A DNA stretch of 64,000 nt from Candidatus Omnitrophota bacterium. Its GTDB lineage: Bacteria; Omnitrophota; Gorgyraeia; Gygaellales; Profunditerraquicolaceae. Positions 3,661-34,874 of this stretch are shown piece after piece (position 1 is the stretch's first letter; every line of letters starts with the position of its first letter). A program made the translations under genes and the position numbers. The stretch lies in NCBI GenBank assembly GCA_016208765.1, contig JACQXK010000009.1:118255-182254 (forward strand), in the 5' to 3' direction. The notes beneath the pieces are model-generated. The model was not told the origin of the DNA. It ran no database searches and worked only from the letters and a program-made list of their open reading frames with translations.

Positions 3661-4145
3661 CTTCTATACTGTACTGCCTCGGAAATGTGCTCAGATTTAA
3701 TTATGTCGCAACCTGCTAAATCGCTGATGGTCTTTGCGATTTTTAATATTTTATCGTAAGCGCGAGCTGATAATCCTAATTCTGTTAAGGCCATCTTGAA
3801 GAGCTTTTTTGCCGAGTCATCCAGCAGGCAATATTTTCTTATTAATTTAGAATTCATCTGTGCGTTACAAAAATAGCTGTTGTCTTTGAGCCTTTCTCTC
3901 TGGATTGCGCGCGCCTGCTCTACTCTTGATTTTATAGCTGCCGAAGATTCCGCCTCATTTATTTCCGTAAGTTCTTTGTATTTTATCGCCGGTATTTCAA
4001 CATGGATATCAATGCGGTCTAATAGAGGCCCGGATATTTTGCCCATGTAATTTGCTATTTTTGTAGTATTGCAACGGCAAACCTTCATTTTATCTGTAAA
4101 ATACCCGCATGGGCAACCGTAGCCAACCTTTCCACAAACACCCAA
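3642..4145 (-). pseudogene. comM: C-terminal fragment of Mg-chelatase-like competence protein ComM/YifB (gene disrupted)
   Basis: 167 aa matching only the C-terminal part of YifB/ComM (Cys-rich CPCGY...C.C motif, PLLDRIDIHVEIP). The N-terminal Lon-like and AAA+ domains (~330 aa) are absent from the adjoining DNA. Confidence 0.7.
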
Positions 4146-4399
4146 TCAAACTGACATTCAAGATCTCCCGTTATCCAGATAAAACTTCAGGACAAAAAAT
4201 CCGTAAGTATAGACTCGAGAGAGAGTTAAAGCAGATAGAATTAGCAAGGTTGCTGAAGGTTGATGAAATGACTATTGTTAATTGGGAATTGGATAAAACA
4301 AAACCCAGGGATATGCTTGCAAATAGAGTAAATAGGCTTTTAGGAACAGAAATTTATCCTATACAAACATCGGCTTTATTAGGAGTAAAACTAAAATGA
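4109..4399 (+). CDS. Small HTH (XRE-like) DNA-binding protein, first gene of the island
   Basis: Helix-turn-helix-like segment LKQIELARLLKVDEMTIVNWE. Start is uncertain (overlaps the comM remnant). Confidence 0.35.
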   Translation: MGNRSQPFHKHPIKLTFKISRYPDKTSGQKIRKYRLERELKQIELARLLKVDEMTIVNWELDKTKPRDMLANRVNRLLGTEIYPIQTSALLGVKLK

Positions 4400-5766
4400 T
4401 CCCCACAGGCATATCCCCTACAGAAGCGGCATTTGAAGTTGTTGGTTTGGTTAATGCCAAGTCAATAATAGATTTCTTGTTTTTTGAAACCAAGATAGGT
4501 TTAGCCGTTTTTCTTATAGGATTTTTGACTTCTTTATGGAGATCTGTCAAAGAATCCGATTTTTCAGTTCTATGGAGTTATTTGGTGATGTTTTGTATTC
4601 TTTTGTTTATTTTTATTAAGCCTATGGCTAGTTTGGAGAGCTCTACTTCTACCATGGAAGCAGCCGGATGGAAAGGCACCTCAACTCAAGAGGCATTAAA
4701 AGACGTCTTTATTGATACCGGTAAAGCTCGAGCTGGTTCTCTAGGTCTTGTTTTCATAAGCCAAGGTTATAATGCCATTGTTTATGGCACGATAAGTGCT
4801 ATTACCAAGGTTACTCAACAGAAAGATTTTAACTATCTGAACAATCCTTTTATCGTCAATAAAGTGTCTTTATATCTACAGCATTTTAGCAGTGAAGGAA
4901 TCAAGAAAAACAACGCCTTAAGAAAAGACTTGGAAGGTTTTCTTAAAAACGATTATCCGCAGACCTTAGGAAGGATGGTTAATAATGGCAAAACTCAATC
5001 AGGTATATCCAAGAAATGGTGGCCTGGGGATGAAGAGGTAATAATGAACTATGATTTGGATCAGAGAAAACGTTGGGAAGCTTTGGACTTAAGATTAACC
5101 GACTATATCAAAACAGAGATAGGCAAATTAGGCGCTAAAGGTCAATTTACCGACCTCTTCATAGACTACAAGGCAATAAAGATAAAGCTTCTTGCCGGAC
5201 ATACTGAAAAGGCAGCTACGGATATAGCCTCTAACTTGACCGGTTACGGCATAGAGCCTAAGAGTGCCAGCTTAAGCTGGTTGATGAGGCAGCCTGCTAG
5301 TTGGCTAGCCTATGCTTCATCATTTGTAGGGCAATTCTTTTCAACCACTTTATCAGAGTTTATGATTAAGGCACTTCCATACTTACAGGGCTACGCGGTA
5401 ATGATTATTTACAGCCTGTTTCCGTTTACTTTATTACTGTGCCTTTTATTTGGGACATTCAGCATATTAAAAGAGTATTTTATTTACCTCTTTTGGGTTA
5501 AATCCTGGGTCATTGTCTGGGCTCTTATTCATTATGCAGCTATCTATATGTCTACCTTACAGGCAAGGTTGGGTTCCGGCACCAGTTCCTGGTTTTTTGA
5601 GAAGCCTTATTTTAATACGGTTACGGGAGTGCTTCTGGTTATGTCTCCAGGGATTGCCTGGTTTATGACTAAGGGGGTATTATCTGGTATAGGAGAAGCA
5701 GCTTCGGCTTTAACCCTTCATGCTGATAAGGGAGTAGGTAAGGTAGGTTCTAAAATAGGGGTGTAG
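4396..5766 (+). CDS. Polytopic membrane protein, TraG_N / VirB6-like (mating-pair stabilisation / channel subunit) candidate
   Basis: 456 aa with 2-3 N-terminal and 3-4 C-terminal TM helices around a large soluble central region. This topology and size match the F-type TraG N-terminal domain. Sits at the head of a tra cluster. Confidence 0.3.
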   Translation: MIPTGISPTEAAFEVVGLVNAKSIIDFLFFETKIGLAVFLIGFLTSLWRSVKESDFSVLWSYLVMFCILLFIFIKPMASLESSTSTMEAAGWKGTSTQEALKDVFIDTGKARAGSLGLVFISQGYNAIVYGTISAITKVTQQKDFNYLNNPFIVNKVSLYLQHFSSEGIKKNNALRKDLEGFLKNDYPQTLGRMVNNGKTQSGISKKWWPGDEEVIMNYDLDQRKRWEALDLRLTDYIKTEIGKLGAKGQFTDLFIDYKAIKIKLLAGHTEKAATDIASNLTGYGIEPKSASLSWLMRQPASWLAYASSFVGQFFSTTLSEFMIKALPYLQGYAVMIIYSLFPFTLLLCLLFGTFSILKEYFIYLFWVKSWVIVWALIHYAAIYMSTLQARLGSGTSSWFFEKPYFNTVTGVLLVMSPGIAWFMTKGVLSGIGEAASALTLHADKGVGKVGSKIGV

Positions 5767-5878
5767 ATGGATAAAATAATTCGCAAATTAATTTTTAAAA
5801 AGTTAGCGGTTAGGTGCGAATTATCCCAATTTGATTACGCTAATTATTTTGCGAATTATTTTTTAAGTATATTTATTA

Positions 5879-6020
5879 TCCCCAAGCACTTAAAGTTATT
5901 TGCGGGCGGTATGCCTTCGGGTGGTTTCGTCAACAACCCTCTCGAAGGCTACCGCACGCTCGTTCCAATCAAAACCACCCAAAACCCCCTAACCCAAAAA
6001 CCCTTAAGGCAGGGCGGGGC
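5879..6020. repeat. Left copy of 142-bp inverted repeat (IR-L), G-rich, with a G-tract (G4-prone) segment and an internal 13-bp hairpin
   Basis: Its reverse complement matches 32687-32828 at 141/142 positions (single T/C difference). Contains CCC/GGG tracts (CACCCAAAACCCCCTAACCCAAAAACCC) and the hairpin GCGGTA(T)GCCTTCG...CGAAGGCTACCGC. Confidence 0.9.
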
Positions 6021-6035
6021 TAATAAAGGAGAAGC

Positions 6036-6809
6036 ATGAGAAAAGGAAGATTAACAAAAGAAGAACAAGCGCGTAGAATCAAGTCATTACTTATCTTTAT
6101 CTATACTTTTCGATATGCAACGAGGAATCAATTGGAGATGTTTATTCAGGTGGTAATGAATCTATCTTTTACGCGCTGGCTTATAGATTATTCTCTTAAC
6201 AAGGGCTTCATCAATGCTTACTACGAGTCTTTATTCAAGACAAAAATCTACTATTTAACCTATAAGGGTAGGGAAATGATTTGCGATCAAGCCATGGTTG
6301 AACATTACTATTTTGAGAAGGCTCACGCGGGGTTAAATACCTTTATTCATCATAATAATATGATAGAGGCCTTTATGTTACTTAGAAGCCACTTGAATAT
6401 CGAAGAATGGGTGTGTGAGTGGGACCTAAGGAGGGGCAAGAGGGCAGGTGAGAAAATTCCCGATGGTTTAATAAAGCTTACGGAAGGAATCAATATGGCT
6501 TTGGAAGTGGAAACCCGCTATAAAACCCTTGGGATCCTAAAGACATTCATTAAGAGATACCGCTACGATATAGAGAAGATTTCTAGGTATCATTGTTTAT
6601 TGGTTGTAGCTTCAAGCAGGTTTAATTATGACGGCTTAAGAATGAGGCTGTATAACATTGCCCCGGAATTCTGTTCAAAAGCTCTTATTTTGGCTGATCT
6701 GGGTATGCTTGAGTTGGGAATGTGTTTCTACCAAGGCAAGCTGATACATCTTGAAGAAGCAATAAAGTTGTTAAAAGAGGGAGGGCAAAATCATGGACAA
6801 ACCGTTTAG
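6036..6809 (+). CDS. Replication-relaxation (Replic_Relax) family protein, putative relaxase/initiator
   Basis: 257 aa. Winged-helix-like N-terminus (LIFIYTFRYATRNQLEMF). Immediately upstream of, and overlapping, the coupling-protein gene. Family assignment is by overall resemblance only. Confidence 0.4.
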   Translation: MRKGRLTKEEQARRIKSLLIFIYTFRYATRNQLEMFIQVVMNLSFTRWLIDYSLNKGFINAYYESLFKTKIYYLTYKGREMICDQAMVEHYYFEKAHAGLNTFIHHNNMIEAFMLLRSHLNIEEWVCEWDLRRGKRAGEKIPDGLIKLTEGINMALEVETRYKTLGILKTFIKRYRYDIEKISRYHCLLVVASSRFNYDGLRMRLYNIAPEFCSKALILADLGMLELGMCFYQGKLIHLEEAIKLLKEGGQNHGQTV

Positions 6810-9057
6810 TTTAAAAGGATTCTTTATAAAGATATTGGTGTTGGTTCCGCTATTCTATATCGGCTTCGGCTGGTATATCGGTCTCAACTACGGAAGAAAG
6901 GGCGCCATTTTGGGACCCTTTGATAATATCCCTGTGGTGATGAAGACTAGTCTCTTGGGCTCATCCCTTGAGGATATTTCAGGCAGTAAAGCTTTGGTAA
7001 TGGTTGTGCCGCCAAAAGAAACCGGTAAGTCTGATCAGGACTCAACTTATTTTAAGATAACCGGTTATTTTGAAGTGCCCGGGAGTTGGGCTTTTGATTT
7101 TGCGCCTTCCGGCAACGATATTGTCCTTCCAAAGACCTTTGCTATGACTGGAAGCTATTCTAGGGTCATTTGCTATGAGCTTAAGAATCCCAGGCACAGG
7201 TTAGGAAGCTTGTCAGTAAGAGAGCTTAATGATCTTCTTAAGGCATCCGGCAGAACCAAGGATATGTTAAGTTTGATGCCTTATCTATTTCTTTCAAATA
7301 TGGAAGAGAAATACCCTTGGCTCTACTCTGACACAGTACTCTTGTCCAGAGCAATGGGTAATATCTTTAAAGACAATATGCTTCCCTACGACATATTAGG
7401 GTTAGCAGGTATAGCAGTTTTTTTTATTGCAATGGCTGCAAGAAGCTTCTGGCTATGGATATATTACTTGTATTGGGTGTTTGCTTACTGGTTCGGCAGG
7501 ATTGGCTACCATGATATAAATCTGTCTTTTAGTAACGATGGCTGGCAGGTAATCCGTTGGAGCTTCTGGAACGGTTTTATCATAAAAGAGGGAAGGTTAT
7601 TCCTGATTATAGCCTTTGGTTTGTCAATTATCGGATTTACAGGCTTGGGTATTATTTATGTGATTAAACACGTGATACCGCGTAAAAGGCGAGAGCTGGA
7701 GGATTTCTTAAAGATAGACAAAGAAACACAAAAGAGAAAAGAGCTTTCCATTGAAACTGTTGAGTTTAAGAAAGTCCACTTTAACATCAACAAAAAGTTA
7801 AATCAATACGCCAAGACAGACAAATATTTTCTGGCTGTCTCAGATGATAAGCTGGATGTGGTTGTCGAGGAGGCTGTGCTTAACCGTCATCTGCACGTAT
7901 TAGGTCCTACAGGAGGCGGAAAAACTTCATTAGTGATCCTTCCTTTAAGCAGGCAGGCGATAGAAAAAGGAAGAGGCTGCTGCTTTATTGATTTTAAGGG
8001 CGATGAGGTTTTTAAAAAGTATGTCCAGCAGCAGGCAAAAGAAAAGGGTAAGAATTTTTATTATTTCAGCATTGACCCTAACGAGCCGTCATCAGGGTAT
8101 AATCCGCTCTCCTCAGGAGATATCCATTCCAAGGTAGACAGGATTATGACGGCACTTGAACTGATTTATCACGGCCCGGCCGGATTTTACTCTAACGTGC
8201 AGGCAATGGCATTCGTTGCATTATTAAAAGAAATGGCTAAGGAAAATAAAGAGATAAATTTTCTTTCGGTTAAAGAAGAATTGGATAAGCCGGACTTTTT
8301 AGAAAGAACGGATGTAAGCGCTCAGGAAGTAAAGGGGCTCGTGGCAGTAATTTCTTGGATTGCAGATATCGATGTAATAAACCGGGATGAACTGGATTTA
8401 GCCAAAGCGATTAAAAACGGCGATATTGTATTCTTCGCCTTAAAGAGCCAGGTGAATACGCGCCTGGCCGAGGCAATAGGTAGGATGCTTATAATTGATC
8501 TTAAATGCCATGCAGTATCCCGCAAGGAAACGGATCCACCTTACTTTATCTTCATTGACGAATTCCAGAATTTAGCTTGTTCGCATTTTGTAGATGTTAT
8601 TTCTAAAGTAAGATCCGCTAATTTCTGCTTGGTTTTATCCAATCAGTCGCGGGGCAACTTATCCAATGTATCAGCTGCATTCGAAAATGCGATTTTCACC
8701 AATACCGCAACCAAGGTAATCTTCATGCAGGAGGACCCTTTTGATGCGAGGTTCTGGTCAGATAAGACAGGGCAGACCACTTATCAGGATAAGAGCGTGT
8801 TTCAGGTGGATAACATAAGTAATGATAAGGCAGGTGCCAAGCTTGACGGTTTAAGATCCGCTCAAGGCAATATCCGGACCGCTCTTAAGAACTACATTTC
8901 AGAGAACGTGTTTTTAAGGCTGCCGTTTCATAAGTCTGTTATTTTTTTAAGGGAAAAACTCACCGTAATAGCTAACCATGAGTTCTTATTTGACAAAAAA
9001 GAAAGAGACAGGCTTATCGCGAACCCGTTTGAATATGACAAGAATAAAGCAGCATAA
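6793..9057 (+). CDS. traD: Type IV coupling protein (VirD4/TraD/TraG family ATPase)
   Basis: 754 aa; N-terminal TM helices; Walker A LGPTGGGKTS; Walker B FIFIDEFQNL. TrwB/TraD-like architecture. Confidence 0.75.
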   Translation: MDKPFSLKGFFIKILVLVPLFYIGFGWYIGLNYGRKGAILGPFDNIPVVMKTSLLGSSLEDISGSKALVMVVPPKETGKSDQDSTYFKITGYFEVPGSWAFDFAPSGNDIVLPKTFAMTGSYSRVICYELKNPRHRLGSLSVRELNDLLKASGRTKDMLSLMPYLFLSNMEEKYPWLYSDTVLLSRAMGNIFKDNMLPYDILGLAGIAVFFIAMAARSFWLWIYYLYWVFAYWFGRIGYHDINLSFSNDGWQVIRWSFWNGFIIKEGRLFLIIAFGLSIIGFTGLGIIYVIKHVIPRKRRELEDFLKIDKETQKRKELSIETVEFKKVHFNINKKLNQYAKTDKYFLAVSDDKLDVVVEEAVLNRHLHVLGPTGGGKTSLVILPLSRQAIEKGRGCCFIDFKGDEVFKKYVQQQAKEKGKNFYYFSIDPNEPSSGYNPLSSGDIHSKVDRIMTALELIYHGPAGFYSNVQAMAFVALLKEMAKENKEINFLSVKEELDKPDFLERTDVSAQEVKGLVAVISWIADIDVINRDELDLAKAIKNGDIVFFALKSQVNTRLAEAIGRMLIIDLKCHAVSRKETDPPYFIFIDEFQNLACSHFVDVISKVRSANFCLVLSNQSRGNLSNVSAAFENAIFTNTATKVIFMQEDPFDARFWSDKTGQTTYQDKSVFQVDNISNDKAGAKLDGLRSAQGNIRTALKNYISENVFLRLPFHKSVIFLREKLTVIANHEFLFDKKERDRLIANPFEYDKNKAA

Positions 9058-9077: not shown

Positions 9078-9401
9078 ATGTGTAGAGATATTAAAAGAAA
9101 GAGCTTTATATTAAAGACCTTTGCGGTCTTGTGCTTGGTTCTCGGATTTTCAATGGCGGTGGCACCTTTTGTCTTTGCGGAAATAAGCACCACCCAGGAG
9201 CAACAGGTAGTAAGCGACTTCGCCACGTTTATCATCAACATACTCACCGGACCTGTGTCAAAAATCCTGGGGGCAATATTGTTGATTGGCGGCGTGTTTG
9301 CGCTCTTAAACGGAAAGCAGGGAGTGGCTATAGCCTGCGGTTTTGGGTTCATGATTCTTATGTTTATACCCAAGATTCTGGAAGGATTGTTTAAGCAGTA
9401 A
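9078..9401 (+). CDS. traA: Conjugative propilin (TraA/VirB2/TrbC family)
   Basis: 107 aa; long leader with a signal-peptide-like region, then two hydrophobic helices (ILGAILLIGGVFALL, IACGFGFMILMFIP). Strong AGGAGGG RBS. Sits in the traA position ahead of traL. Confidence 0.55.
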   Translation: MCRDIKRKSFILKTFAVLCLVLGFSMAVAPFVFAEISTTQEQQVVSDFATFIINILTGPVSKILGAILLIGGVFALLNGKQGVAIACGFGFMILMFIPKILEGLFKQ

Positions 9402-9688
9402 TGAGAAAATGCCTGCGCACTATTGATAAACCGCTGCTGCTCTTCGGGCTTGAGCCTGAAGACGTGGGGATACTGGCTTTGGCCTGCGGCTCGATGATTT
9501 TATTCTTTGATACCTTTTACGCAGGCCTGGTATTCTTTGGGGGCTGGATGTTTTTAAGGTTAATAAAGCAGGGCAAGCCCCAGGGTTACATTACACACAT
9601 GTTTTATAAGTATGGGATTCGGATAAAAGGCTTGATTGCCCCGCCAAAAAAAGTTAAAATATATTCAGTTTTTAGGAAAGAGGATTAA
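9401..9688 (+). CDS. traL: TraL (VirB3-like) pilus assembly protein
   Basis: 95 aa. Alignable by eye to F TraL (FGLEPEDVGILALACG versus F LGLPLDEVIPAAICIG; RLIKQGK versus RKLKKGR). Confidence 0.55.
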   Translation: MRKCLRTIDKPLLLFGLEPEDVGILALACGSMILFFDTFYAGLVFFGGWMFLRLIKQGKPQGYITHMFYKYGIRIKGLIAPPKKVKIYSVFRKED

Positions 9689-9690
9689 CT

Positions 9691-9882
9691 ATGCAGATGC
9701 AAAATTTTACAATACCAGGATTATTATTGGTTGTCTCAATCGTTGTCCTTTATTTCCTGCCGACATTGATTGCGTTTTTAAGGAACCATAAAAATAAGCT
9801 GGCGGTATTTTTACTAAACCTGCTTTTAGGTTGGACAGGATTGGGATGGGTGGTATCACTTGTCTGGTCGGTAATGAAGTAA
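9691..9882 (+). CDS. Small membrane protein of the superinfection-immunity family (Imm_superinfect-like)
   Basis: 63 aa, two TM helices, family-typical motif YFLPTLIAFLRNHKNK...LLNLLLGWTGLGWVVSLVWS. Confidence 0.5.
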   Translation: MQMQNFTIPGLLLVVSIVVLYFLPTLIAFLRNHKNKLAVFLLNLLLGWTGLGWVVSLVWSVMK

Positions 9883-9921
9883 ATAATGCAAGATAATTTA
9901 GCGGTTCAGGAAAAAATTTAT

Positions 9922-9949
9922 ATAAAAAATCTTGACAATTTAAAATTAT
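9922..9949 (+). promoter_or_regulatory. Sigma70-type promoter (TTGACA, 16 nt spacer, TGT-extended TAATAT)
   Basis: Near-consensus -35 TTGACA at 9922-9927 and extended -10 TGTGTAATAT ending at 9949, in the 200-bp gap upstream of traE. Confidence 0.5.
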
Positions 9950-10020
9950 TGTGTAATATTAAATTAACAATTAGGTAAAGTAGATTTAACACAGTCGCTA
10001 TCACTCGGTCGCAAGACCGG

Positions 10021-10064
10021 AGAAAAATAGGGCTGGTTTTCTGAAAGCAATTTCAGAGAGCCAG
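10021..10064 (+). terminator. Intrinsic terminator / attenuator hairpin in the traE leader
   Basis: GGCTGG ... CCAGCC outer stem with nested CTGAAA/TTTCAG inner stem, followed by TTTTTTATTT. Lies between the promoter at 9922 and the traE start at 10080. Confidence 0.5.
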
Positions 10065-10079
10065 CCTTTTTTATTTGCC

Positions 10080-10697
10080 ATGAATGATTTTAAACCAGAG
10101 AAATTAAAACGCACCGGTTTCGTTGAGAAATGGGCTCATGCAGAACAGACTTCTGCATTTTTGGGGATCAGCCTTTACGCTATTATTATTTTTTGTATAG
10201 CCTTATTGCTTACGTTATTTAAGGTATCCACAAAGCCCCAGGCCATTTATTACATCCCAAGCGCACAAGAAGCTGGCATTGCTTATCCTAACCGCATAGA
10301 TAAAACAATGATCTGCGGTTTTGCTTCAAACTGGCTCTTAAACCGCAATAACTTCACTCCCGCCACAGTCAAGGACACTTATCAAAGAGCAATGCGTTAT
10401 ATGGCGCCTGGGCTACTTTCCAGGACAAAGGCAAGCCTGGAAGATGAAATATTAAGAGTTACGCGCGACAATATCTCTTCGTTATTTTCCCTAAGCAAAG
10501 AGCCGGAATTAGAAGACTCAGGTACGGATTTTAAGGTAACGCTCACTGGAGAAAAGATTATTTTCATGGGCAAAGAAAAACTTGATGATCGTATTCTTCG
10601 TTACACTATGACCTTGCAAAGAATTTCGCCTATTGAGACCAACCCTTACGGAATAGTGATAGCGGGAGTAAAACAGGAAGAGGTAGAGACACAATGA
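10080..10697 (+). CDS. traE: TraE (VirB8-like) inner-membrane pilus assembly protein
   Basis: 205 aa; single N-terminal TM helix. Segment RAMRYMAPGLLSRTKASLEDEILRVTRDN aligns with F TraE ALLQYIRPGAQNQMKVILAEEAKRIKNDN. Confidence 0.55.
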   Translation: MNDFKPEKLKRTGFVEKWAHAEQTSAFLGISLYAIIIFCIALLLTLFKVSTKPQAIYYIPSAQEAGIAYPNRIDKTMICGFASNWLLNRNNFTPATVKDTYQRAMRYMAPGLLSRTKASLEDEILRVTRDNISSLFSLSKEPELEDSGTDFKVTLTGEKIIFMGKEKLDDRILRYTMTLQRISPIETNPYGIVIAGVKQEEVETQ

Positions 10698-12648: not shown

Positions 12649-13000
12649 CGGATGTGTTGCGTCTAAAGGAATAGTGAAGGACAGCCCAAGCAGGGTAATG
12701 GATGTATACCTGGAGGCTGTTTCTGGCGGAAGGATAGATGCAGTTAACTATATAAAGGAAAACTTAAAAATTGATAAAGCCTTTGGCTATGTAAAGCCCT
12801 ATGTTCCGGTGGTTGAGCCTGCGGATGTGCGCATGGTATGGCTGCCGGCGCATAAGTCAAAATATTCATCTCAAGTTTTAGTCAGCGGCCATTGGGTTTA
12901 TGTCATGGTGAAAGATTCACGCTGGTTTATTGATACACAAGCTAAAGGTGAAGCAAAAATTCCCTTGATAGTCCCTTATAAGGAAGTTAACAAAAAATGA
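12578..13000 (+). CDS. traV: TraV-like outer-membrane lipoprotein
   Basis: Lipobox LLLLMTSGC. An in-frame TTG at 12608 would give a clean lipoprotein signal peptide and reduce overlap with traB. Sits in the traV position before traC. Confidence 0.4.
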   Translation: MSRKECKLKALKFPVIILLLLMTSGCVASKGIVKDSPSRVMDVYLEAVSGGRIDAVNYIKENLKIDKAFGYVKPYVPVVEPADVRMVWLPAHKSKYSSQVLVSGHWVYVMVKDSRWFIDTQAKGEAKIPLIVPYKEVNKK

Positions 13001-20030: not shown

Positions 20031-20031
20031 A

Positions 20032-28018: not shown

Positions 28019-28091
28019 TATAAAAAATGAAGATTTTAGATCATGATCTCAAACTATTAAAATATATTCAGTTTTTAGGAAAGAGGATTAA

Positions 28092-28958
28092 CTATGCAGA
28101 TTTACGAAAGTAAAACCCTTCTTTGAAATAAGGGTGTTTTTTTAATAGTTCAACCCTACGTAAGTTGAGATTGGATAGTCCATTTCTCACGGTTTCCTCG
28201 TAATATTTTTCTCGATTTCCTACCAATTTGTTCTTTCCGTTAAAAAATGTTTCAAAGATTATATGTTTGATTCTTATAAAATCATCTTTAATTATAGCAT
28301 TGATTGCAAGCAATGAGTCTAATATATGCACCATTCTTAAGCAATTATCTCGATGATAAGTAGGATCAATCGATGAAAGATGTGCCCAAATATGTCGGTT
28401 AAAATTTAATAATGGCAAATCGGATCTTCTTCGTACCTGTTTATATAAAGTATTAGAAAGTAAAGTAAGTAGATTTTCTACGATGTAAGTGAGAAGCGGT
28501 TGTAATTCAGGGCGTCCTGCGCGTAGAGACATCATTCTTTGAATATTACTATTGTCTATTCGAACGAATTCCCTTTCTCCTATTAACTGGAGGATGATGC
28601 CTTCTGGCAAGGGAGTCAATACTCCCTCACAAGTAATCAAGTTTAAGTCATACAACTCTAGAAGACCGATTTCAACCAAGTGCGAGAATTTATCTATTGG
28701 CTGAAGATTACAGTATCCTTCTTCTATCAATATGGCCCGAAATTTATAAAGAAGTGTATTAACAAATATCTCATCGGCAATCATCTTCCCGTAATGTTCT
28801 TTATCTCTTAGGGTGGGCGTTCCAGGAAGGCGTTTGATAAAATCAATAAATTTTGGCTTTACAAACTGAAAAAACCAAAAAGGAGATATAACCCATTCAT
28901 ACTTAGTTAATTTTACATTGGCCAAATTATATGATTCAAAGAGTTCTCCATCAGTCAA
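28092..28958 (-). CDS. Hypothetical protein on opposite strand (possible Abi-like defence gene)
   Basis: 288 aa; no motif recognised with confidence. Its 3' end abuts a 46-bp duplicated segment. Confidence 0.25.
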   Translation of the reverse strand: MTDGELFESYNLANVKLTKYEWVISPFWFFQFVKPKFIDFIKRLPGTPTLRDKEHYGKMIADEIFVNTLLYKFRAILIEEGYCNLQPIDKFSHLVEIGLLELYDLNLITCEGVLTPLPEGIILQLIGEREFVRIDNSNIQRMMSLRAGRPELQPLLTYIVENLLTLLSNTLYKQVRRRSDLPLLNFNRHIWAHLSSIDPTYHRDNCLRMVHILDSLLAINAIIKDDFIRIKHIIFETFFNGKNKLVGNREKYYEETVRNGLSNLNLRRVELLKKHPYFKEGFYFRKSA

Positions 28959-29340
28959 TATTGTCTCCTTTTTTATATATAACTTTATGGCATAGAAACT
29001 AGCTGATTCTATTGGAATTGCATAAAATTACATATTTTAGAATGCACAGGTAAAATTATATCAAAGATTGAAAAAATTGTCATTTAGATTTTGTCGTGGT
29101 GGCCACACGATTCACTTTAGCGGCTGAAATTTTTCTCTGTTTATTAGAGAACCTATCCTATGGCAGGCCTTATAAATTCTTCAGTTATCGTTTCTGAATT
29201 GGACTACAAACCATTACAGGAACGTATTTTCTCTTCTATAAAATTTTTACTATCTGTTTTGCAGTTTTTTCGATACACTAACCTTTTCTTCGATCAGACA
29301 GCTTCCTTTTCTCATTTTTTATTTTTTCTTGTCTTCAGTA

Positions 29341-29675
29341 ATCCCCTTTCTTTTTATCCGCCTACAATAACCCAAGCCTGACTTTTGCTCAAGAAAATCC
29401 TTCGGAAAAATTCATCTCTGCCTAAAAAGCCTTTTCGTGGTTTGCCTCGGAAAGGCTTTTTTGTCATCAGAAGTATTCTGCCCCTATAGGGGAGTCTCAA
29501 TTTTTCCAAAGGACTCCCAAGAAGGTCGCTCGTTTGGCTCTCGCTTCCCTTCGGGCATGTCTGTTTTTTTGACAAAAGACCGTATTTTCTGTGGTGTGCC
29601 TCAAAAAATACTTCAATTTCTTGGGTTTTAATTTTCGGCGTCAAAAGAAAGGAGGCTTACATGAGCCAAGTAAAA
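29341..29675 (+). promoter_or_regulatory. Copy 1 of a ~320-bp duplicated leader/promoter module (ends in RBS + ATG + MSQVK)
   Basis: About 80% identical to 33190-33512. Contains TTGACT/TTGACA boxes, the hairpin GGGAGTCTCAATTTTTCCAAAGGACTCCC, and a conserved AAAGAAAGGAGGCTTACATGAGCCAAGTAAAA end. Confidence 0.6.
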
Positions 29676-29963
29676 ACAAAACAAAAAACAAATCGAAAGG
29701 AGGTGAATACTATGATTGAAGTAGCCAGAGTTTATAAAGTCGAAAAAGACGAGAGCTCCCTGAAGGCCTTTGTTGACATTAAAGTCGCTGACGCGGTTTT
29801 AATCAAAGGTATCAGGGTTATGGCTAAAAAAGACGGCGGGCTGTTCGCAGCTATGCCATCCCATTTAGCTGGCGACGGTAAGTATTACGATACCGTTCAA
29901 TTCTTAACGCCTGAGGCAAAAACCGAATTGCAAGAAGTGGTTCTTGCAGCCTACGAGGCTTAA
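29661..29963 (+). CDS. spoVG: SpoVG-family nucleic-acid-binding protein
   Basis: IKGIRVMAKKDGGLFAAMPSHLAGDGKYYDTVQFLTPEAKTELQEVVLAAY parallels B. subtilis SpoVG ([47 protein letters not shown]). An internal Met at 29712 with an AGGAGG RBS is the probable true start. Confidence 0.65.
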   Translation: MSQVKTKQKTNRKEVNTMIEVARVYKVEKDESSLKAFVDIKVADAVLIKGIRVMAKKDGGLFAAMPSHLAGDGKYYDTVQFLTPEAKTELQEVVLAAYEA

Positions 29964-30021
29964 AGAATTTAAAAACTTTAAAAGCTGTCCTATCGGCTAT
30001 ACGGGGGAAAGGAAAGATAAA

Positions 30022-30255
30022 ATGAACTTAAACGAACTAGAGAACGAAAAGACAAAAATTAAGCTTGCAGGGGAAGAGGTAGAGGTTAAAACTTCTGATT
30101 CCGTAAAGGATACCTTAACAAGGCTCCTTAAGGAAAAAGGCATTGATTCTTTTACCATTTTGGTTGACGGAGAAGAAGTTACCTCTACCGATGACTTGCC
30201 GGCTACTTTTGACGGTCATGATATCGAAGTTGAAAGATACGTCAAGGCAGGTTAA
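30022..30255 (+). CDS. Small beta-grasp ubiquitin-like protein (Ubl) with C-terminal Gly
   Basis: 77 aa. Alternating hydrophobic pattern of a beta-grasp fold (KIKLAGEEVEVK ... FTILVDGEEV). Ends ...VERYVKAG. First gene of an E2/E1/JAB cassette. Confidence 0.5.
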   Translation: MNLNELENEKTKIKLAGEEVEVKTSDSVKDTLTRLLKEKGIDSFTILVDGEEVTSTDDLPATFDGHDIEVERYVKAG

Positions 30256-30325
30256 ATAAAAAAGCCAAAGGAGAGGGAGAGATTCTTTTCTCCCTCTCCT
30301 AAAGTTTAATAAGGAGCTTGAGAAG

Positions 30326-30913
30326 ATGATAGATACGGAATTAATCACAAAAGCAAAGAAAAAATCAACATTAATTGAAAAGATTGACGCCTCTTGGCGG
30401 GAGTTTACGGAAAGCTTAAAAGAAGGTATCTTTACGGTTCCTTTTACCGGAGGTTACAGATGCGTAATCAAGGAAGATGATATGCTTATTGAGGGCTATT
30501 CTGGTCTATTGCTCATAGATAAGGTCTACTATAGCCATAAGACCTATTCTTTAAAGATACCTGTCAAATATTACCCTTTTAAAATTTACGGCATCTATGA
30601 CCAAGGTGGCTGCTTTATTGCGTTTGTTTCAGAGCCGGAGATAGGCTTCCACTATTTGGGTATGAGCGATAAGGGGCATACCATCTGCACCGGAGAGATT
30701 CAATACCTTAACCCTGAATCTTTAGGCTTGCTCAAAGAAGCCTGCTTAAAGATAGCCAAGTCATTCAGGGTAATCAACCTTGAATCCTTAGGAACCGTAA
30801 TCTTACCCGAGAGATTCTCAAATTTAAAGAACATCCTGTCAAATAAAGATAAAGATGTATCATGCAAATTTTCGGAATTGGATAAGCAAGGTCTGATTGA
30901 GCGGATCATTTGA
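30326..30913 (+). CDS. E2-like (UBC-fold) conjugating enzyme candidate
   Basis: 195 aa; HYLGMSDKGHTICTGEI resembles the UBC HPN...Cys catalytic segment. Sits between the Ubl and the E1. Confidence 0.4.
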   Translation: MIDTELITKAKKKSTLIEKIDASWREFTESLKEGIFTVPFTGGYRCVIKEDDMLIEGYSGLLLIDKVYYSHKTYSLKIPVKYYPFKIYGIYDQGGCFIAFVSEPEIGFHYLGMSDKGHTICTGEIQYLNPESLGLLKEACLKIAKSFRVINLESLGTVILPERFSNLKNILSNKDKDVSCKFSELDKQGLIERII

Positions 30914-31854
30914 AGGAGGATAAAACTATGCCACAAGAAGCTATTTATGAACGACAGAGATTAATAGAAGGTCTAGAAATACCCGAAGTCGCCTCGGTAG
31001 TAGGCTGTGGCGGAACGGGTTTCTGGACTGCTCTTCTTCTTTCCATGTCAGGAATTAAAGAATTGATCTTGGTTGATACCGATATAGTTGAGGTATCCAA
31101 TCTGAACAGGCTGCTTTTACAGGAAAGCTCTGTAGGAAAGAAGAAAGCAGAAGCCCTAAAAGAACTCATATCCGGCATAAGAAAAGAAATAAGGATTGAG
31201 ATTCAGGATATGCGTATCGAAAAGCCCATAGACTGCCAGATATTACGTGGAGATATATTTTGCTGCACGGACAACTTAAAAAGCCAGCAGATTATCTGCG
31301 CTTTCTGCAAAAAGAACGAACTTGCCTACCAAAGAATTGGCTATGACGGCACAATCCTGAATGTTTCAAAGACCTTCCCGCTTTCCTTAAAAGATACAGA
31401 TGAGGATCGGGGCTATACAATTACTCCTTCCTGGGTGATTCCTGCGGTATTTGCCGCGGCAGCCGGAGTTTCATCACGCACTTACAAGGAACTTTGCCTT
31501 ATGGATGATATCGGGAAGGTTCATATACAGCATTCTTCTCATATCTGTCGCAAAATTTTAGACGATGCGAGAATCGAAGGCGAGGATAACATTATTGATA
31601 ACATCGAAGACCATATACCTGATAACTACGGTTACTGTGATGATTGCTCAAGGATTGACCCTGACGGCTCTGATTACGGATACTGTCCTGACTGTGAAGA
31701 ACATTACAGCGATGACGATATAGAGGACATAAAAGAAAAAGCAAAGAATGAGGAGTACGACCGGATAATCGGGGAGATTGAGGCAGGAGAGATTACTGAC
31801 CCAAAGTTATTAGAAGCCATTAGAAAATGGGCAAAAGCAAAAGGAGGAAAATAG
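30910..31854 (+). CDS. E1-like activating enzyme (ThiF/MoeB/UBA superfamily)
   Basis: Rossmann motif VVGCGGTGFWTALLLSMSGIKELILVDTDIVEVSNLNRLLL (GxGxxG ... D.D.V..SNLNRQ). Acidic Cys-rich C-terminal tail (CDDC...CPDC). Confidence 0.75.
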   Translation: MKEDKTMPQEAIYERQRLIEGLEIPEVASVVGCGGTGFWTALLLSMSGIKELILVDTDIVEVSNLNRLLLQESSVGKKKAEALKELISGIRKEIRIEIQDMRIEKPIDCQILRGDIFCCTDNLKSQQIICAFCKKNELAYQRIGYDGTILNVSKTFPLSLKDTDEDRGYTITPSWVIPAVFAAAAGVSSRTYKELCLMDDIGKVHIQHSSHICRKILDDARIEGEDNIIDNIEDHIPDNYGYCDDCSRIDPDGSDYGYCPDCEEHYSDDDIEDIKEKAKNEEYDRIIGEIEAGEITDPKLLEAIRKWAKAKGGK

Positions 31855-31855
31855 A

Positions 31856-32668
31856 ATGTTTACGTTAGAAGATACTAAAACCAAAAAAAGCAATATTTTA
31901 GATGTAAGGATAAAAAATTACGGGGAATGTGGTTTTTGTACTGACCATGACCACAAAGAAACTCTAAAGATACCTTGGAATATCTGGAGTCAGTGGCAGT
32001 ATATCAGTCAGCGCATACAGGATAAGGAATGGGGCGCTATATTTTGGGTTAAGGATAATACCATAACGAGCTTTAAAATCCCAAAGCAGGAGGTAGGCTC
32101 AGTAGACTGTGAATTCAAGGAAGAATTAGGGGGTGATGGCATAATCCATTCGCACCACGATATGGGAGCGTTTCATTCATCGCAGGACGATGCCCACGCG
32201 CGCAATCTCTACACTTACAGCATAGTTATAGCTAATTCCAAGGGAAGTATTGCTACAAAAAGAGTAAAGCTACCCTGTAACGGCTTTGGCTACGTCAAAA
32301 TAAGCTTAAAACTGGTTGAATTACCTGAGATAGATCTTTCAAAGATAAGCGAAAGAACAAGGGAGTTAATTCCAGAGGCGACCTCAGAATTTGAAGAAAG
32401 CGAGCATCCTTGCGACAGTTGTCAAACCGGCGACTGCGAGAACTGCGAACACTTAGGTATGCCTTATCTAGCTTGCCAGACCTGTGATACCTTTAAATGC
32501 AAATCGTGCAAGACAACCGCCGGTCTGGACATCCGGGGTGTGCTTCCTTTTTGCGAGCTCTGTAATGGCTCTGATATTTGTGCTTCCTGCGAAAGAATCG
32601 CAAAATACCTTAAAAATTACCCAGAAGAGCGAGGTCATTTACAAACTCCAGTTGAGAGCCAGGCGTAG
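31856..32668 (+). CDS. JAB/MPN (JAMM) metallopeptidase with C-terminal Cys-rich zinc-ribbon region
   Basis: Exact JAMM motif H-S-H-x7-S-x2-D in IIHSHHDMGAFHSSQDD plus upstream Glu. C-terminus has ~16 Cys in CxxC pairs. Confidence 0.7.
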   Translation: MFTLEDTKTKKSNILDVRIKNYGECGFCTDHDHKETLKIPWNIWSQWQYISQRIQDKEWGAIFWVKDNTITSFKIPKQEVGSVDCEFKEELGGDGIIHSHHDMGAFHSSQDDAHARNLYTYSIVIANSKGSIATKRVKLPCNGFGYVKISLKLVELPEIDLSKISERTRELIPEATSEFEESEHPCDSCQTGDCENCEHLGMPYLACQTCDTFKCKSCKTTAGLDIRGVLPFCELCNGSDICASCERIAKYLKNYPEERGHLQTPVESQA

Positions 32669-32686
32669 AGGTTTATAAATACGCTC

Positions 32687-32828
32687 GCCCCGCCCTGCCT
32701 TAGGGGTTTTTGGGTTAGGGGGTTTTGGGTGGTTTTGATTGGAACGAGCGTGCGGTAGCCTTCGAGAGGGTTGTTGACGAAACCACCCGAAGGCATACCG
32801 CCCGCAAATAACTTTAAGTGCTTGGGGG
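32687..32828. repeat. Right copy of 142-bp inverted repeat (IR-R)
   Basis: Reverse complement of 5879-6020, 141/142 identical. Begins 19 bp after the JAB gene stop. Confidence 0.9.
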
Positions 32829-32873
32829 TAAAGAAATAAGTTTTAAAAAATTAATTAAAAGGGAGAGAAAAAT

Positions 32874-33074
32874 ATGAAAGTTGATAATTGGGTTGACGAA
32901 TTACGAAATCAGTTAAGAAGCTTCGACGCGGAAACCTTAGACAGCGAAATGAAAATGGCTGATATAACGCTGGGCTATGTTGATACGCAAGGCCTAATTC
33001 ATTACCACAAAATTGAATACAGGGCAAAAGGATTTGAGAAGAAGCCGGTCCTAAACCAGCCCTTACAGAGCTAA
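32874..33074 (+). CDS. Hypothetical small protein (66 aa)
   Basis: ORF with GGGAGAG RBS; no motif recognised. Confidence 0.2.
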   Translation: MKVDNWVDELRNQLRSFDAETLDSEMKMADITLGYVDTQGLIHYHKIEYRAKGFEKKPVLNQPLQS

Positions 33075-33189
33075 AATTTACGCATTAAAATTCAGGCAGT
33101 GGATGGCCAAAATATTCGGCCTTTCCATAGCTACGCGCTTTTCTCTTCATCCTCAAATTTTCTTTTCTGTTTTTCCTTGCCGTCACGTA

Positions 33190-33512
33190 ATCCTCTTTCT
33201 TTTTCTCGCCTTAAAAATAGCCCAAGATTGACTTTTGTGCAAGAAAATCCTTTGGAAAAATTCACCTCTACCTTGTCTTTGCGGTTTGCCTCAAAGGACA
33301 AGGTATCAAGGATATCCTGCCCCTTCGGGGAGTCTCAATTTTTCCAAAGGACTCCAGGAAACTCGCTCACTTGGGCGTTCGCTTCCTTTCGGGCGTATCT
33401 GTTTTCTTGACAAAAGACGTGATTTTTGTGGGTTACCTCAAAAATCACTTCAAATCATTGGGCTTATATTTTCGGCATCAAAAGAAAGGAGGCTTACATG
33501 AGCCAAGTAAAA
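33190..33512 (+). promoter_or_regulatory. Copy 2 of the duplicated leader/promoter module
   Basis: Direct repeat of 29341-29675, including the GGGGAGTCTCAATTTTTCCAAAGGACTCC hairpin and the RBS+ATG+MSQVK start. Confidence 0.6.
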
Positions 33513-33791
33513 AAAGAAATATTAAAGAAAAACGAAAAATTTGAGGATGGGATGCTGCGCACGGATGCCTGCATGGAAAGGCATCTGGGCAGCCGTAATT
33601 CTCAATACAGGACCTATTCAGAGGATCTGTCGCAGAATTCCTTCGGTTTTTCCGCTGTCTGGGAAGAAAGACATCTTATGAAAGACGTCTACAATCTCAT
33701 CAACAAGGGCTTTAAGCCAAACGGTTCTGAAACTCTGGAAACCTTTGTTGAGAAACATCGGGATTTGCTTGATGAAGAAGGTGATTTCTAA
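33498..33791 (+). CDS. Hypothetical protein (97 aa) driven by leader copy 2
   Basis: Starts with the same MSQVK codons as the spoVG-region ORF and then diverges. No recognisable domain. Confidence 0.3.
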   Translation: MSQVKKEILKKNEKFEDGMLRTDACMERHLGSRNSQYRTYSEDLSQNSFGFSAVWEERHLMKDVYNLINKGFKPNGSETLETFVEKHRDLLDEEGDF

Positions 33792-34006
33792 TGCAGGAGT
33801 TTAAGAAGGTTACAACTAATGAAGTAACTGAAAAATTAACCATGGGCCAGATTGAGAAAGTCTGGCAGCGGGTTGATGCAAGAAAAGAGCAGGATTCAAA
33901 TCAGCTTAGCCTGCAGGTTTTTTGGTTTGCAGGGGTAGAGGTTTGGGTAATAGATGAAGGTGGTATTACTACAATGATGTTTCCTAACGAAAATAAGGAG
34001 GAATGA
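33791..34006 (+). CDS. Hypothetical small protein (71 aa)
   Basis: Overlapping stop/start (TAATG) with the upstream ORF. No motif recognised. Confidence 0.25.
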   Translation: MQEFKKVTTNEVTEKLTMGQIEKVWQRVDARKEQDSNQLSLQVFWFAGVEVWVIDEGGITTMMFPNENKEE

Positions 34007-34336
34007 AAATGTGGATACAAAAAGACAACTTAAAAAAAGAAATAACCTGGGAGCGAATTTTGGATTGGGTAGTAATTGACGGAGTCTTGTGGGTGGAAAT
34101 TCAAGAAAAGGAGGTGAAAGACGTATGTATAGTCCAGTGTTAAGCGAAACAATGGTTAAGACGCTGTATAGGCTGAAATACAGCCAGGATAAGCCGATGA
34201 CTGTGGTGGTTGAGAAGTTGCTTCTGCGCTCGATAGCATCTATAGACAAAGGGCCGGTGTGTGAGAAATGCATCAGTGAAAACAATAATGATTGCAGGAA
34301 TTGTTACCTATCCTGTATTACAAAGGAGGTTTCAAA

Positions 34337-34677
34337 TGTTAACAGAAAATGAATTAAGGCAATTTAGCGGAACAGAGCATTGGTATAAACATTTAAGCGG
34401 GTATCTTTACACTGATGGCATTCAATATGTCGCGCAAGAAGGTGGTGCATTTTGGCTAATTGATAAAGTATTGTTTATGACCAGAGCGAAAAATAATTTA
34501 CAGGAATTTGGCGTTTGGAAGCTTAAGGTTAATGAAGATAGATCGGCAACACTAGTGTGCGAAGACGGTAATTACCATGAGCTCTATCGAGAGAAGATTG
34601 AGTGGACAGATTTTCCGCTGAAAAGAATTGAATTATGGTTTGAAAATGGCGTTTTAATACTGCCAAGCGAACATTAA
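34337..34677 (+). CDS. Hypothetical protein (113 aa from the internal Met at 34337)
   Basis: AAAGGAGG RBS before the ATG at 34337. The longer track ORF begins at 34261. No motif recognised. Confidence 0.3.
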
Positions 34678-34874
34678 AGAAAAAGACTGAAAAATATGTA
34701 ATTAAGCGGACTACGAAGATTGCTACTAATCCGACAGAAAAATATTCTTAGAGGTATTAGGTTGTAGTTTTAATAGTTTTATTGTAGAGGAATTGTTTGA
34801 CGAATAAGAAATTAGGTTTATAATTAGATTTAGACTGTTATAATATGTTACAAAAGGTGTAAACCTATAAAAGA

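Follow-up and report, generated by a model that had tools for sequence, protein, structure and literature searches.

The window analysed, 64,000 nt of the Candidatus Omnitrophota contig JACQXK010000009.1 (GCA_016208765.1, positions 118,255-182,254, forward strand), contains a conjugative island inserted in comM at a codon which is also used by serine-recombinase elements elsewhere; the case is well supported and adds one more member to an already known kind of element. The complete explanation, in which a conjugative element of about 70 kb, made of backbone and cargo, was integrated in comM by a large serine recombinase, is regarded as fairly probable. The left end of the insertion is defined by the following features.

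3017-3640, minus strand: small IS200/IS605-like unit (Y1 transposase, RAYT-like), separating folE from the comM stop codon
3642-4115, minus strand: comM (yifB) 3' fragment, residues 360-516 of about 518, frame intact, stop codon at 3642-3644
4108-4115, minus strand (as read): junction core TGCCCATG; comM homology begins at 4115, with the TG of the Cys360 codon

The ORF at 3642-4145 (minus strand) matches the Pfam profiles Mg_chelatase (profile positions 159-206 of 207, E 2.5e-14) and Mg_chelatase_C (E 2.7e-33). When a full-length, 518-aa ComM (locus L005) was used as tblastn query, only residues 360-516 were detected, at 4115-3645 (E 1.8e-71). Residues 1-359 were found nowhere in the 64 kb, and a frameshifted continuation of the gene, an alternative raised by the initial annotation, is therefore excluded. 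Nucleotide homology to the closest intact comM, that of L007 (88% amino acid and 79% nucleotide identity), starts exactly at base 4115, in the TGC of the CPCGY motif. Since codons 1-10 of the ORF (4145-4116) are element DNA, comM is truncated as had been noted, but 157 true codons are left, not 167.

Comparison with relatives carrying an intact comM, which had been recommended, revealed the uninterrupted site: in L008 an intact comM adjoins the same folE-mnmE-folC flank found in the window, and comM is likewise intact in L007. The proposed insertion into comM is thereby confirmed. Two independent Logan assemblies, derived from other runs, reproduce the window with 100% identity, one over positions 1-5909 (L115) and the other over positions 51479-64000 (L003); the left junction is therefore no assembly artefact.

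The adjacent Y1_Tnp gene (ORF 3064-3639, minus strand; Pfam E 3.3e-14) lies 2 nt past the comM stop codon. Three exact copies of the palindrome CGGAAACTGTTTCC, at 3022, 3601 and 3624, bracket it, where none is expected by chance. The gene is called as 160 aa in L115, and its true start is probably the ATG near 3547, preceded by AAGGAGG. The reported adjacency of this IS200-like element to the comM remnant is correct, but the element is located downstream of comM, did not cause the truncation and is an unrelated neighbour.

The missing half of comM was traced through protein accessions. Proteins of the window run from MBI4706863 to MBI4706922, on a contig of 220,517 nt. MBI4706932, ten proteins past the last complete gene of the window and on a contig likewise of 220,517 nt, is a 368-aa comM 5' (N-terminal) fragment, which ends AAMNPCP/WRSIS... 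(the slash marks the break) and is broken at the same motif. Accession numbers follow the succession of the genes, which was verified over the interval from TraG_N (863) to TraC (874). Accession order and contig size together place the comM 5' half on the same contig, to the right of the window, in indirect agreement with the initial annotation, and the distance of ten proteins therefore indicates an insert of about 70 kb. The left junction is read directly, while the right one is known as a protein tail only (NPCP/W), from which the 8-base core TGCCCATG would be present at both junctions.

The break falls at the TG of the Cys360 codon, within the conserved AMNPCPCGY motif, and the same crossover position is found at three prophage loci (L111, L113, L114), so that it is common to independent elements. 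In two other Omnitrophota lineages (L096/L097 and L100/L101), the break in comM is at the same motif; the 5' fragments, of 357 and 355 aa, precede convergent Resolvase+Recombinase+Zn_ribbon_recom proteins of 555 and 523 aa, only 35% identical to each other. On prophage contigs, such recombinases are neighbours of comM 3' fragments whose first residue is 360 (L111, L114) or 223 (L105, L106). Overall, the comM 5' fragments of nine protein clusters terminate within NPCP(C)(G), and the element-side crossover bases are similar in three cases: GCTACGGT/TGCCC in the window, CACACGGT/TGTCC in L111 and CCCACGGG/TGCCC in L114. One comM codon thus appears to be a recurrent integration point of serine recombinases in distant bacteria and, by analogy, the integrase of the window element is likely a large serine recombinase encoded near the comM 5' fragment.

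No integrase is visible in the window, as originally stated: apart from Y1_Tnp, no scanned ORF matched an integrase, resolvase or transposase family, and tblastn with two large serine recombinases gave no match. Recombinase and right junction are also absent from the Logan contig reaching 2.6 kb past the window end. The initial annotation had described comM as a known hotspot for genomic islands and ICEs, with AbaR islands as an example. In AbaR/AbGRI of Acinetobacter baumannii a large accessory island interrupts comM, as here, and this part of the parallel holds. Tn7-like (AbaR/Tn6022-type) transposition into comM, its classical target (PMC11441513, PMC11472951), is extremely improbable as the mechanism, since TnsA/B/C-type or other such transposases were not found in 60 kb (Pfam, NCBIfam), the element ends are not Tn7-like and the break codon is common to serine-recombinase elements in several phyla; the evidence favours a large serine recombinase. 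AbaR/AbGRI, moreover, use Tn7-like transposition with a short duplication, whereas the window element has no Tns genes, occupies another comM site and carries a conjugation module.

The left 30 kb of the insert contain the following features.

4109-4399, plus strand: HTH_3 regulator, first gene of the element (Pfam HTH_3, E 2.4e-7), annotated ATG inside the junction core
4396-5766, plus strand: TraG_N
5767-6039, plus strand: 90-aa ORF between TraG_N and the MobC-like gene
6036-6809, plus strand: MobC-like relaxosome accessory protein (weak match, 37.7 bits against a cutoff of 200)
6793-9057, plus strand: TraD-like coupling protein
9078-15534, plus strand: F-like mating-pair formation genes, in the order TrbC-like pilin, TraL, 63-aa Imm_superinfect-like ORF, TraE, TraK/VirB9-like, TraB, TraV, TraC
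15873-24577, plus strand: type IV pilus module (secretin, three unknown ORFs, PilB/TadA-like ATPase, PilC-like platform protein, one PilS-like and two further prepilin-like proteins)
24584-28018, plus strand: TraU, 210-aa ORF, TraF (thioredoxin-like), TraH
28019-29235: variable spacer between TraH and the hairpin/SpoVG block, with a 288-aa ORF on the minus strand
29340-29660, plus strand: conserved long-hairpin element of about 320 nt, upstream of SpoVG (DNA fold z-scores, alignment)
29661-32668, plus strand: SpoVG-like protein, 103-aa candidate ubiquitin-like protein, 195-aa ORF, ThiF/E1-like and JAB deubiquitinase-like proteins
32687-32848, minus strand: inverted partial copy of 5859-6020 (162 nt, 94%), the two arms bracketing the whole secretion block
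33189-33497: second copy of the long hairpin
33426-34684, plus strand: small ORFs and DUF6876, end of the backbone

The previously described set of tra, pil and ThiF-JAB (Ubl) genes, spanning about 30 kb, is confirmed by profile matches across 4396-34677. The combination characteristic of an ICE is present: a VirB4-type ATPase (TraC, matching the F-type TraC profile with 389.6 bits, E 2.3e-116), mating-pair genes (TraL/E/B/U/F/H/G_N) and a TraD-like T4CP. Within the MPF-F set, L, E, B, C, U, F, H and G_N were found, K and V gave weak matches, and TraW and TraN were not identified in the window, all scores in these profile searches being below the equivalog cutoffs. The conjugation genes are intact and full-length relative to their homologues, and the order of the mating-pair genes is identical in L013 and L015. 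No ORF of the window matched a relaxase family in the approximately 60 kb searched, about five genes of the element lying outside; the weak MobC-type match being the sole lead, self-transmissibility is putative.

Homologues of the HTH_3 regulator are found in related elements just downstream of TraH and upstream of the SpoVG block (L092, 70%; L019; L088). The spacer has no nucleotide homology to the related elements, which hold 0.2-8 kb of other DNA at this point, and contains, at 28057-28101, a perfect 45-nt copy of 9654-9698. At the position corresponding to the inverted copy at 32687-32848, L033 features a complete 90-aa ORF and TraG_N, inverted.

The two hairpins have DNA fold z-scores of -6.1 and -6.9. 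In an alignment of 18 copies, 69 pairs are formed, 9 of which show compensatory changes, and TTGACA is invariant and located inside a stem. Frpo/ssi sequences are single-strand promoters of plasmid leading regions; they resemble the hairpins described here in being about 300 nt long, with a -35-like box in the stem, repeated, and placed upstream of early-expressed small genes. This likeness concerns architecture only and the promoter role is putative, the hairpins being candidate Frpo-like single-strand promoters of a leading region.

Nucleotide homology with related elements stops at 34,678-34,684, and the DNA shared with about 100 such Omnitrophota elements ends at 34,684. The range initially given for the element, 4109-34700, thus corresponds at its right end to the conserved backbone, but not to the insertion, which runs past the window. 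A search of databases with TraG_N detected 114 homologues (E<=1e-10) in Omnitrophota, mostly 70-93% identical, and 80 related metagenome loci were recovered via TraH. Over 30 protein clusters have a TraG_N with 87-93% identity, whereas ComM N-termini compared to L007 do not exceed 80% beyond its own cluster (P0235, 98%) and the window 5' fragment (P0236, 88%). The same gene order is found beside feoB in L013 and, at another location, in Ca. Velamenicoccus archaeovorus, where two copies are present. Cluster proteins more conserved across genomes than ComM, at different loci, therefore indicate horizontal spread. Neither comM nor a serine recombinase lies within 10 kb of any of about 85 related secretion-cluster loci, and so far this genome is the only one in which the backbone is linked to comM. 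Judged from these comparisons, 4116-34684 would be the backbone of a family of integrative conjugative elements widespread in the phylum.

The cluster could instead be a lineage-typical apparatus for protein or DNA delivery or uptake in small, possibly predatory bacteria, linked to giant proteins and not to conjugation, which would simply be part of the DNA that entered comM. The lack of a detected relaxase among the window ORFs would fit this reading, as would the frequency of the cluster in the phylum and the presence of a 4,630-aa gene that starts 19.6 kb beyond TraH, with which the secretion genes end (28018 to 47586); in published surveys, giant genes of Omnitrophota are reported to be flanked by secretion and pilus genes (bioRxiv 10.64898/2026.06.07.730766). 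It is nevertheless distinctly improbable, because the coupling protein, the MobC-like accessory, the entry-exclusion-like ORF and the DUF6876/SpoVG block preceded by conserved hairpins are hallmarks of DNA transfer, and the horizontal spread described above also argues against it.

Beyond the backbone, the window contains the following features.

34875-46623, plus strand (HTH-cupin gene on the minus strand): cargo 1: HTH_17 (excisionase-type fold), two ketosynthases, dehydrogenase, amine oxidase, 7TM histidine kinase, five receiver-domain proteins, ACP, HTH-cupin gene
47586-62696, plus strand: cargo 2, a 4,630-aa protein with TPR, coiled coils and an M20 peptidase domain, and a 405-aa ORF (MBI4706921, MBI4706922)
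62712-64000: LacI-type HTH ORF (plus strand) and 3' part of a 727-aa GAF histidine kinase (minus strand), the insert continuing past the window

The inserted DNA would measure about 70 kb rather than 30 kb, from 4116 to beyond the window end, and include polyketide-like genes, two-component regulators and the 4,630-aa gene. The sharp stop of backbone homology at 34,684, followed by different cargo in L057 and L092, could also reflect tandem accretion of two or more elements at the comM site, with a 30-kb passenger backbone, devoid of its own recombinase, mobilised in cis by a separate, recombinase-bearing cargo island (from 34.7 kb as far as the right junction) which integrates. Stacks at comM do occur in relatives (a full comM and three 3' fragments in L005, three fragments in L001), and the backbone is found at non-comM sites elsewhere. 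This reading is considered unlikely: no internal comM-like core is present in 4116-64000, where only chance-level matches (13670 and 56741) were found, tblastn revealed no second comM fragment in the window, and L084 has a similar HTH_17-KS-HK-RR-ACP module immediately after TraH, which means that such cargo travels with the backbone.

According to the preferred explanation, all DNA from base 4116 past the window end would be foreign, a single element of about 70 kb integrated in comM. Its left part (4116-34684) would be an ICE backbone, composed of the F-like T4SS, the TraD-like coupling protein, the MobC-like accessory, a type IV pilus serving mating contacts and a block resembling a leading region; the other 35-40 kb or so would be cargo, with KS/ACP genes, two-component regulators and the 4,630-aa protein. 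A large serine recombinase from the right end, beside the comM 5' fragment, most probably performs integration, joining attP of the circular element to the comM site without target duplication. comM would thus be split into a 5' part of about 361 real codons and a 3' part of 157, and excision would restore it. A more far-reaching version is possible but doubtful: an active, reversibly excising element of a phylum-wide Omnitrophota family, using Cys360, a landing site of serine recombinases in several phyla, as a switch which keeps transformation-linked recombination off during its residence, ferrying giant surface-protein genes and signalling modules among ultrasmall, possibly predatory bacteria, and expressing its leading region from single-strand hairpin promoters.

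Several known systems share parts of this organisation. Elements such as ICEclc/PAPI-1/ICEHin1056 and the SXT type, as well as the R64 thin pilus, combine F/G-like secretion with a type IV pilus operon and large cargo, as here. ICEclc/PAPI-1/ICEHin1056 and SXT-type elements integrate at tRNA genes or prfC by means of tyrosine integrases, and their relaxases are of the MOBH type; none of the latter was found in the window, and its matches to TIGR03752, TIGR03755, TIGR03756 and SXT_TraD are all far below the family cutoffs. Integrative elements splitting yifB/comM have been listed as 'regulated gene integrity' candidates (Mageeney et al. 2020, PMC7192596). They and the serine-recombinase prophages share with the window element the target gene, a precise intragenic break and the integrity of both halves; in comparable comM cases (L096, L100, L111, L114) a large serine recombinase is found at one end. 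In contrast to the comM prophages, the window element is a large conjugative element from an uncultured phylum, and its own recombinase would lie outside the window. In Dehalococcoides, the ssrA islands are a serine-recombinase (DsiB) family using one conserved single-copy gene (McMurdie et al. 2011, PMC3146451). Their tandem stacks, recognisable by 3' pieces of the target that recur, match the comM 3'-fragment arrays of L001 and L005; these islands, however, target ssrA and are not conjugative, and the window shows one fragment and no array.

The results extend known mechanisms to a new lineage and do not overturn current understanding. They provide a concrete, well-delimited example of a conjugative element for Omnitrophota, a phylum for which nearly all knowledge comes from metagenomes and in which unexplained mobile DNA and giant genes are reported to abound. 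All DNA between the comM halves, the 4,630-aa gene included, must have come by insertion. The shared comM codon is of interest for recombinase prospecting, and bears on the idea that mobile elements disable ComM and avoid curing by transformation; for AbaR islands interrupting comM, and likewise for the island described here, impaired transformation, shielding the island from curing, is a plausible consequence (PMC11441513, PMC11472951). If true, the hairpin-promoter leading region would extend this mechanism beyond proteobacterial plasmids.

An ORF at 3642-4145 on the minus strand matches the last 48 positions of the Pfam Mg_chelatase model and the whole of Mg_chelatase_C. When the 64 kb were searched by tblastn with the full-length 518-aa ComM of L005, a related Omnitrophota locus, only residues 360-516 were matched, at 4115..3645. 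Because no other part of ComM is encoded in the 64 kb, a single frameshift, with comM continuing upstream of 4145, is excluded; the gene is truncated, as the initial annotation held, and the insertion in comM is confirmed. The main features are as follows.

Left 3 kb, plus strand: folC-like Mur ligase, mnmE and folE, ordinary chromosome
3017-3640, minus strand: unit with a Y1 (IS200-type) transposase gene of 160 to 190 aa, between folE and comM
3642-4145, minus strand: comM 3' fragment
From 4116, plus strand: HTH_3 regulator, TraG_N, 90-aa ORF, weak MobC-type accessory protein, TraD-like coupling protein
Plus strand, continued: TrbC-like pilin, TraL, small Imm_superinfect-like ORF, TraE, TraK/VirB9-like protein, TraB, TraV, TraC
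Plus strand, type IV pilus module: secretin, PilB/TadA-like ATPase, PilC-like platform protein, three prepilin-like proteins
Plus strand, further transfer genes: TraU, TraF, TraH
After TraH: variable spacer of 1.2 kb
Plus strand, leading-region-like block: SpoVG, small candidate ubiquitin-like protein, 195-aa ORF, ThiF/E1, JAB, small ORFs, DUF6876
34875-46036: cargo module with HTH_17, ketosynthases (KS), ACP, 7TM-GAF histidine kinase and five stand-alone receiver proteins
47586-61478: 4,630-aa ORF; membrane segment at the N-terminus, TPR repeats, long coiled coils, M20 peptidase domain

Comparison with relatives carrying an intact comM agrees with a truncation. In L008, an empty-site Omnitrophota genome, an uninterrupted 518-aa comM is convergent with folE-mnmE-folC, the same flank found in the window. 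The closest intact comM, from the Omnitrophota MAG L007 (88% identity in amino acids, 79% in nucleotides), starts to align exactly at base 4115, where the TGC codon of the CPCGY motif begins. In comM orientation the element side of the left junction carries ...GTTTGTGGAAAGGTTGGCTACGGT and the comM 3' half carries TGCCCATGCGGGTATTTTACAGAT. The genes found upstream of comM in L008, L007 and L005 are all missing from the window, and neither a second comM fragment nor an internal att core was found within it. A 329-aa ORF at 62942-63931 (minus strand), of a size fitting the missing N-terminus, was rejected, as it encodes a GAF histidine kinase. No tRNA genes or Rfam families were detected in the window at gathering thresholds. 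The sequence, junction included, is confirmed by two independent Logan assemblies from other runs: L115, which spans ychF-purH-folC-mnmE-folE-Y1_Tnp-comM3'-HTH-TraG_N, is 100% identical to positions 1-5909, and L003 is 100% identical to 51479-64000 and extends 2.6 kb beyond.

The Y1 gene is flanked by three exact CGGAAACTGTTTCC palindromes, one on one side and two on the other, of which no further copies occur in the window. The unit is of IS200/IS605 type or REP-associated, and is inserted between folE and comM; the corresponding position in L008 is occupied by an unrelated 138-aa ORF. The stop codon of the comM fragment lies two bases beyond the Y1 gene. A role of the IS200-like gene in the truncation was rejected, since it lies beyond the comM stop codon.

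The missing comM half was sought through database entries. Exact-sequence look-ups identified window proteins as MBI4706863 (TraG_N), 866 (T4CP), 874 (TraC), 881, 889 (TraH), 903 (KS), 921 (the 4,630-aa protein) and 922 (a 405-aa ORF), all recorded on a 220,517-nt contig, with accession numbers in gene order (the gene-by-gene check covers 863 to 874). The best non-self match to the N-terminal two-thirds of L007 ComM is the protein cluster P0236 (368 aa, 88% identical), which ends in ...AAMNPCP followed by 15 unrelated residues; it corresponds to MBI4706932, recorded on a contig of the same 220,517-nt size. Accession order and the shared contig size would put the comM 5' half on the right, the side where it had been predicted, ten annotated proteins after the window's last complete gene; the whole insert would then measure about 70 kb rather than the 30 kb originally assigned to the element. 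Four of the ten intervening proteins are visible in L003 (a LacI-type HTH protein, a 727-aa kinase, a receiver protein and an HTH-cupin protein), and no start of a recombinase gene was found in its tail, 2.6 kb past the window. The 5' half is retained through TGC CCN TG and the 3' half opens with TGC CCA TG. As the halves overlap only in TGC CC(N/A) TG, the core common to both junctions would be at most 8 bases, its right side being read from protein sequence only.

All the backbone genes lie on the plus strand, and profile matches from 4116 through DUF6876 sustain the coherent tra/pil/Ubl-type set recognised from sequence; TraC scores 389.6 bits against the F-type TraC model. The window ORFs scanned matched no relaxase or recombinase family and tblastn with two serine recombinases detected nothing in the window, in keeping with the reported lack of a visible integrase. 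For the ThiF/JAB set PADLOC returned generic E1 matches only and no named defence system, and PDB sequence searches with the MobC-like and 288-aa proteins were empty.

At E<=1e-10 the database contains 114 homologues of TraG_N, mostly 70-93% identical; the named ones all belong to Omnitrophota, and the complete genome of Ca. Velamenicoccus archaeovorus has two of them. A TraH-anchored scan revealed 80 metagenome loci with the same gene order. Nucleotide homology between related loci and the window resumes at 29,236 after the spacer and stops at 34,678-34,684, just past DUF6876; beyond this edge a DNA methylase is found in L092 and a DUF4325 pair in L057. The end previously set near 34.7 kb therefore stands as the edge of the conserved backbone; it is not that of the insert, because the other comM half is still absent at 64 kb. 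Upstream of TraG_N, no conserved DNA is common to the window, L013 and L015. In more than 30 clusters TraG_N shares 87-93% identity with that of the window, while ComM N-termini, compared with L007 as the closest relative, are at most 80% identical, besides L007's own cluster (98%) and the 5' fragment of the window (88%). The backbone adjoins feoB in L013 and unrelated genes in V. archaeovorus. The higher similarity of TraG_N and the varied neighbours indicate that the backbone moves horizontally.

Repeats are found within the backbone. An element of ~320 nt occurs in two copies, about 80% identical, at 29340-29660 and 33189-33497. As single-stranded DNA each copy forms a single long hairpin (z -6.1 and -6.9). 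Its long-range pairing is conserved, with some compensatory changes, among 18 copies taken from related elements, and an invariant TTGACA lies in a stem; at its 3' end the hairpin pairs with the next gene's ribosome-binding site. It is a candidate single-strand promoter of a conjugative leading region, or a structured leader. A 162-nt inverted repeat (94%; 5859-6020 and 32687-32848) encloses 26.7 kb with the whole secretion block, and holds a strong GC-rich stem-loop, a possible oriT candidate, immediately 5' of the MobC-like gene. In the related locus L033 a full 90-aa ORF and TraG_N lie inverted after JAB, where the window keeps only a partial copy, which suggests an inversion isomer or its remnant. 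A perfect 45-nt direct repeat (9654-9698 and 28057-28101) takes in the traL end, a ribosome-binding site and the opening codons of a 63-aa ORF; its second copy lies 39 nt past traH, at the start of the variable spacer.

The inserted DNA may not be one autonomous element: no relaxase was found in the window, comM and a serine recombinase are absent within reach of related loci, and tandem accretion at comM clearly occurs in relatives. On the other side, L084 has a smaller module of the cargo's kind (HTH_17, ketosynthase, 7TM kinase, receiver, ACP; 1155-5774) immediately after TraH, which argues that cargo and backbone travel together. The HTH_17-KS-ACP-kinase set may be a signalling or lipid-like metabolite module of the element family. 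Derivation of the KS genes from the native KS cluster upstream of comM (L096, L099) was rejected, as these are paralogues only 33-37% identical. The giant 4,630-aa gene is mobile-element cargo by its position inside the DNA inserted into comM.

Among the best 120 matches to the ComM N-terminus, nine clusters of 355-368 aa represent 5' fragments, and all nine end within NPCP(C)(G). Genomic context was inspected for two of them. In the Omnitrophota loci L096, L097 and L098 the gene after a 357-aa fragment is convergent with it and encodes a 555-aa protein that combines Resolvase, Recombinase and Zn_ribbon_recom domains; the 3' end of this gene overlaps the junction. In L100 and L101 a 355-aa fragment is likewise followed by a protein with this architecture, 523 aa long, which shares only 35% identity with the former. 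A scan of viral contigs revealed, in prophages from other phyla, comM 3' fragments beside such recombinases, at discrete breaks.

Residue 223: L105, L106
About residues 298-313: L102, L103, L107, L108, L110
Residue 360: L111, L113, L114

In the IMG/VR serine-recombinase prophages (L111, L114, L105, L106, L102, L103) the comM codons hit are about 162, 223, 298-313 and 360, often those of the most conserved motifs, Walker A and CPCGY. At residue 360 the crossovers fall in register, with similar bases on the element side (crossover marked by a slash).

Window: GCTACGGT / TGCCCATGCGG
L111: CACACGGT / TGTCCTTGTGG
L114: CCCACGGG / TGCCCGTGCGG

The pattern looks like site-specific recombination at a central dinucleotide. 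The register and the like element-side bases make a large serine recombinase, at the right end of the element, the most likely integrase; such a mechanism is probable, rather than the Tn7-like transposition implied by the earlier analogy with AbaR islands. If so, the right junction would read ...AACCCNTGCCCATGG....

In related Omnitrophota contigs, stacks of comM 3' fragments in the same orientation follow an intact comM: L005 (4089-12003; residues 223-517, 353-514 and a decayed copy), L006 and L001 (2-5112; two intact and one decayed). One or two convergent cargo genes (TPR, GDSL lipase, glycosyltransferase, unknowns) come after every fragment; the stacks contain no recombinase. They look as if elements, each bringing its own comM 3' end, had integrated one after another and later lost their mobility genes, and are likened to the case of Dehalococcoides ssrA, where serine-recombinase islands are stacked at one conserved gene (PMC3146451). 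Many displaced 3' fragments (P0005, P0024, P0073, P0113, P0014 and others) start with MHPCPCGY or MNPCPCGY. As the junction provides an in-frame ATG, the 160-aa C-terminal piece of ComM could be expressed alone. Short proteins of 157-170 aa make up 60 of the 120 best matches to the fragment, a figure which is partly a search artefact and not a frequency estimate, because equally similar full-length ComM proteins, such as that of L005, went unlisted.

Integrative elements (PMC7192596) and AbaR islands are both documented to target comM/yifB, and inactivation of the gene has recently been proposed to shield mobile elements from transformation-driven removal (PMC11441513, PMC11472951). Literature searches yielded no account of the element family, nor any of comM as a target in Omnitrophota. 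The interpretation as a conjugative island in comM is supported, with its extent corrected to about 70 kb. The element is otherwise of a known type; what adds interest is the phylum it occurs in, its giant-gene cargo and a landing site in comM that other elements share.
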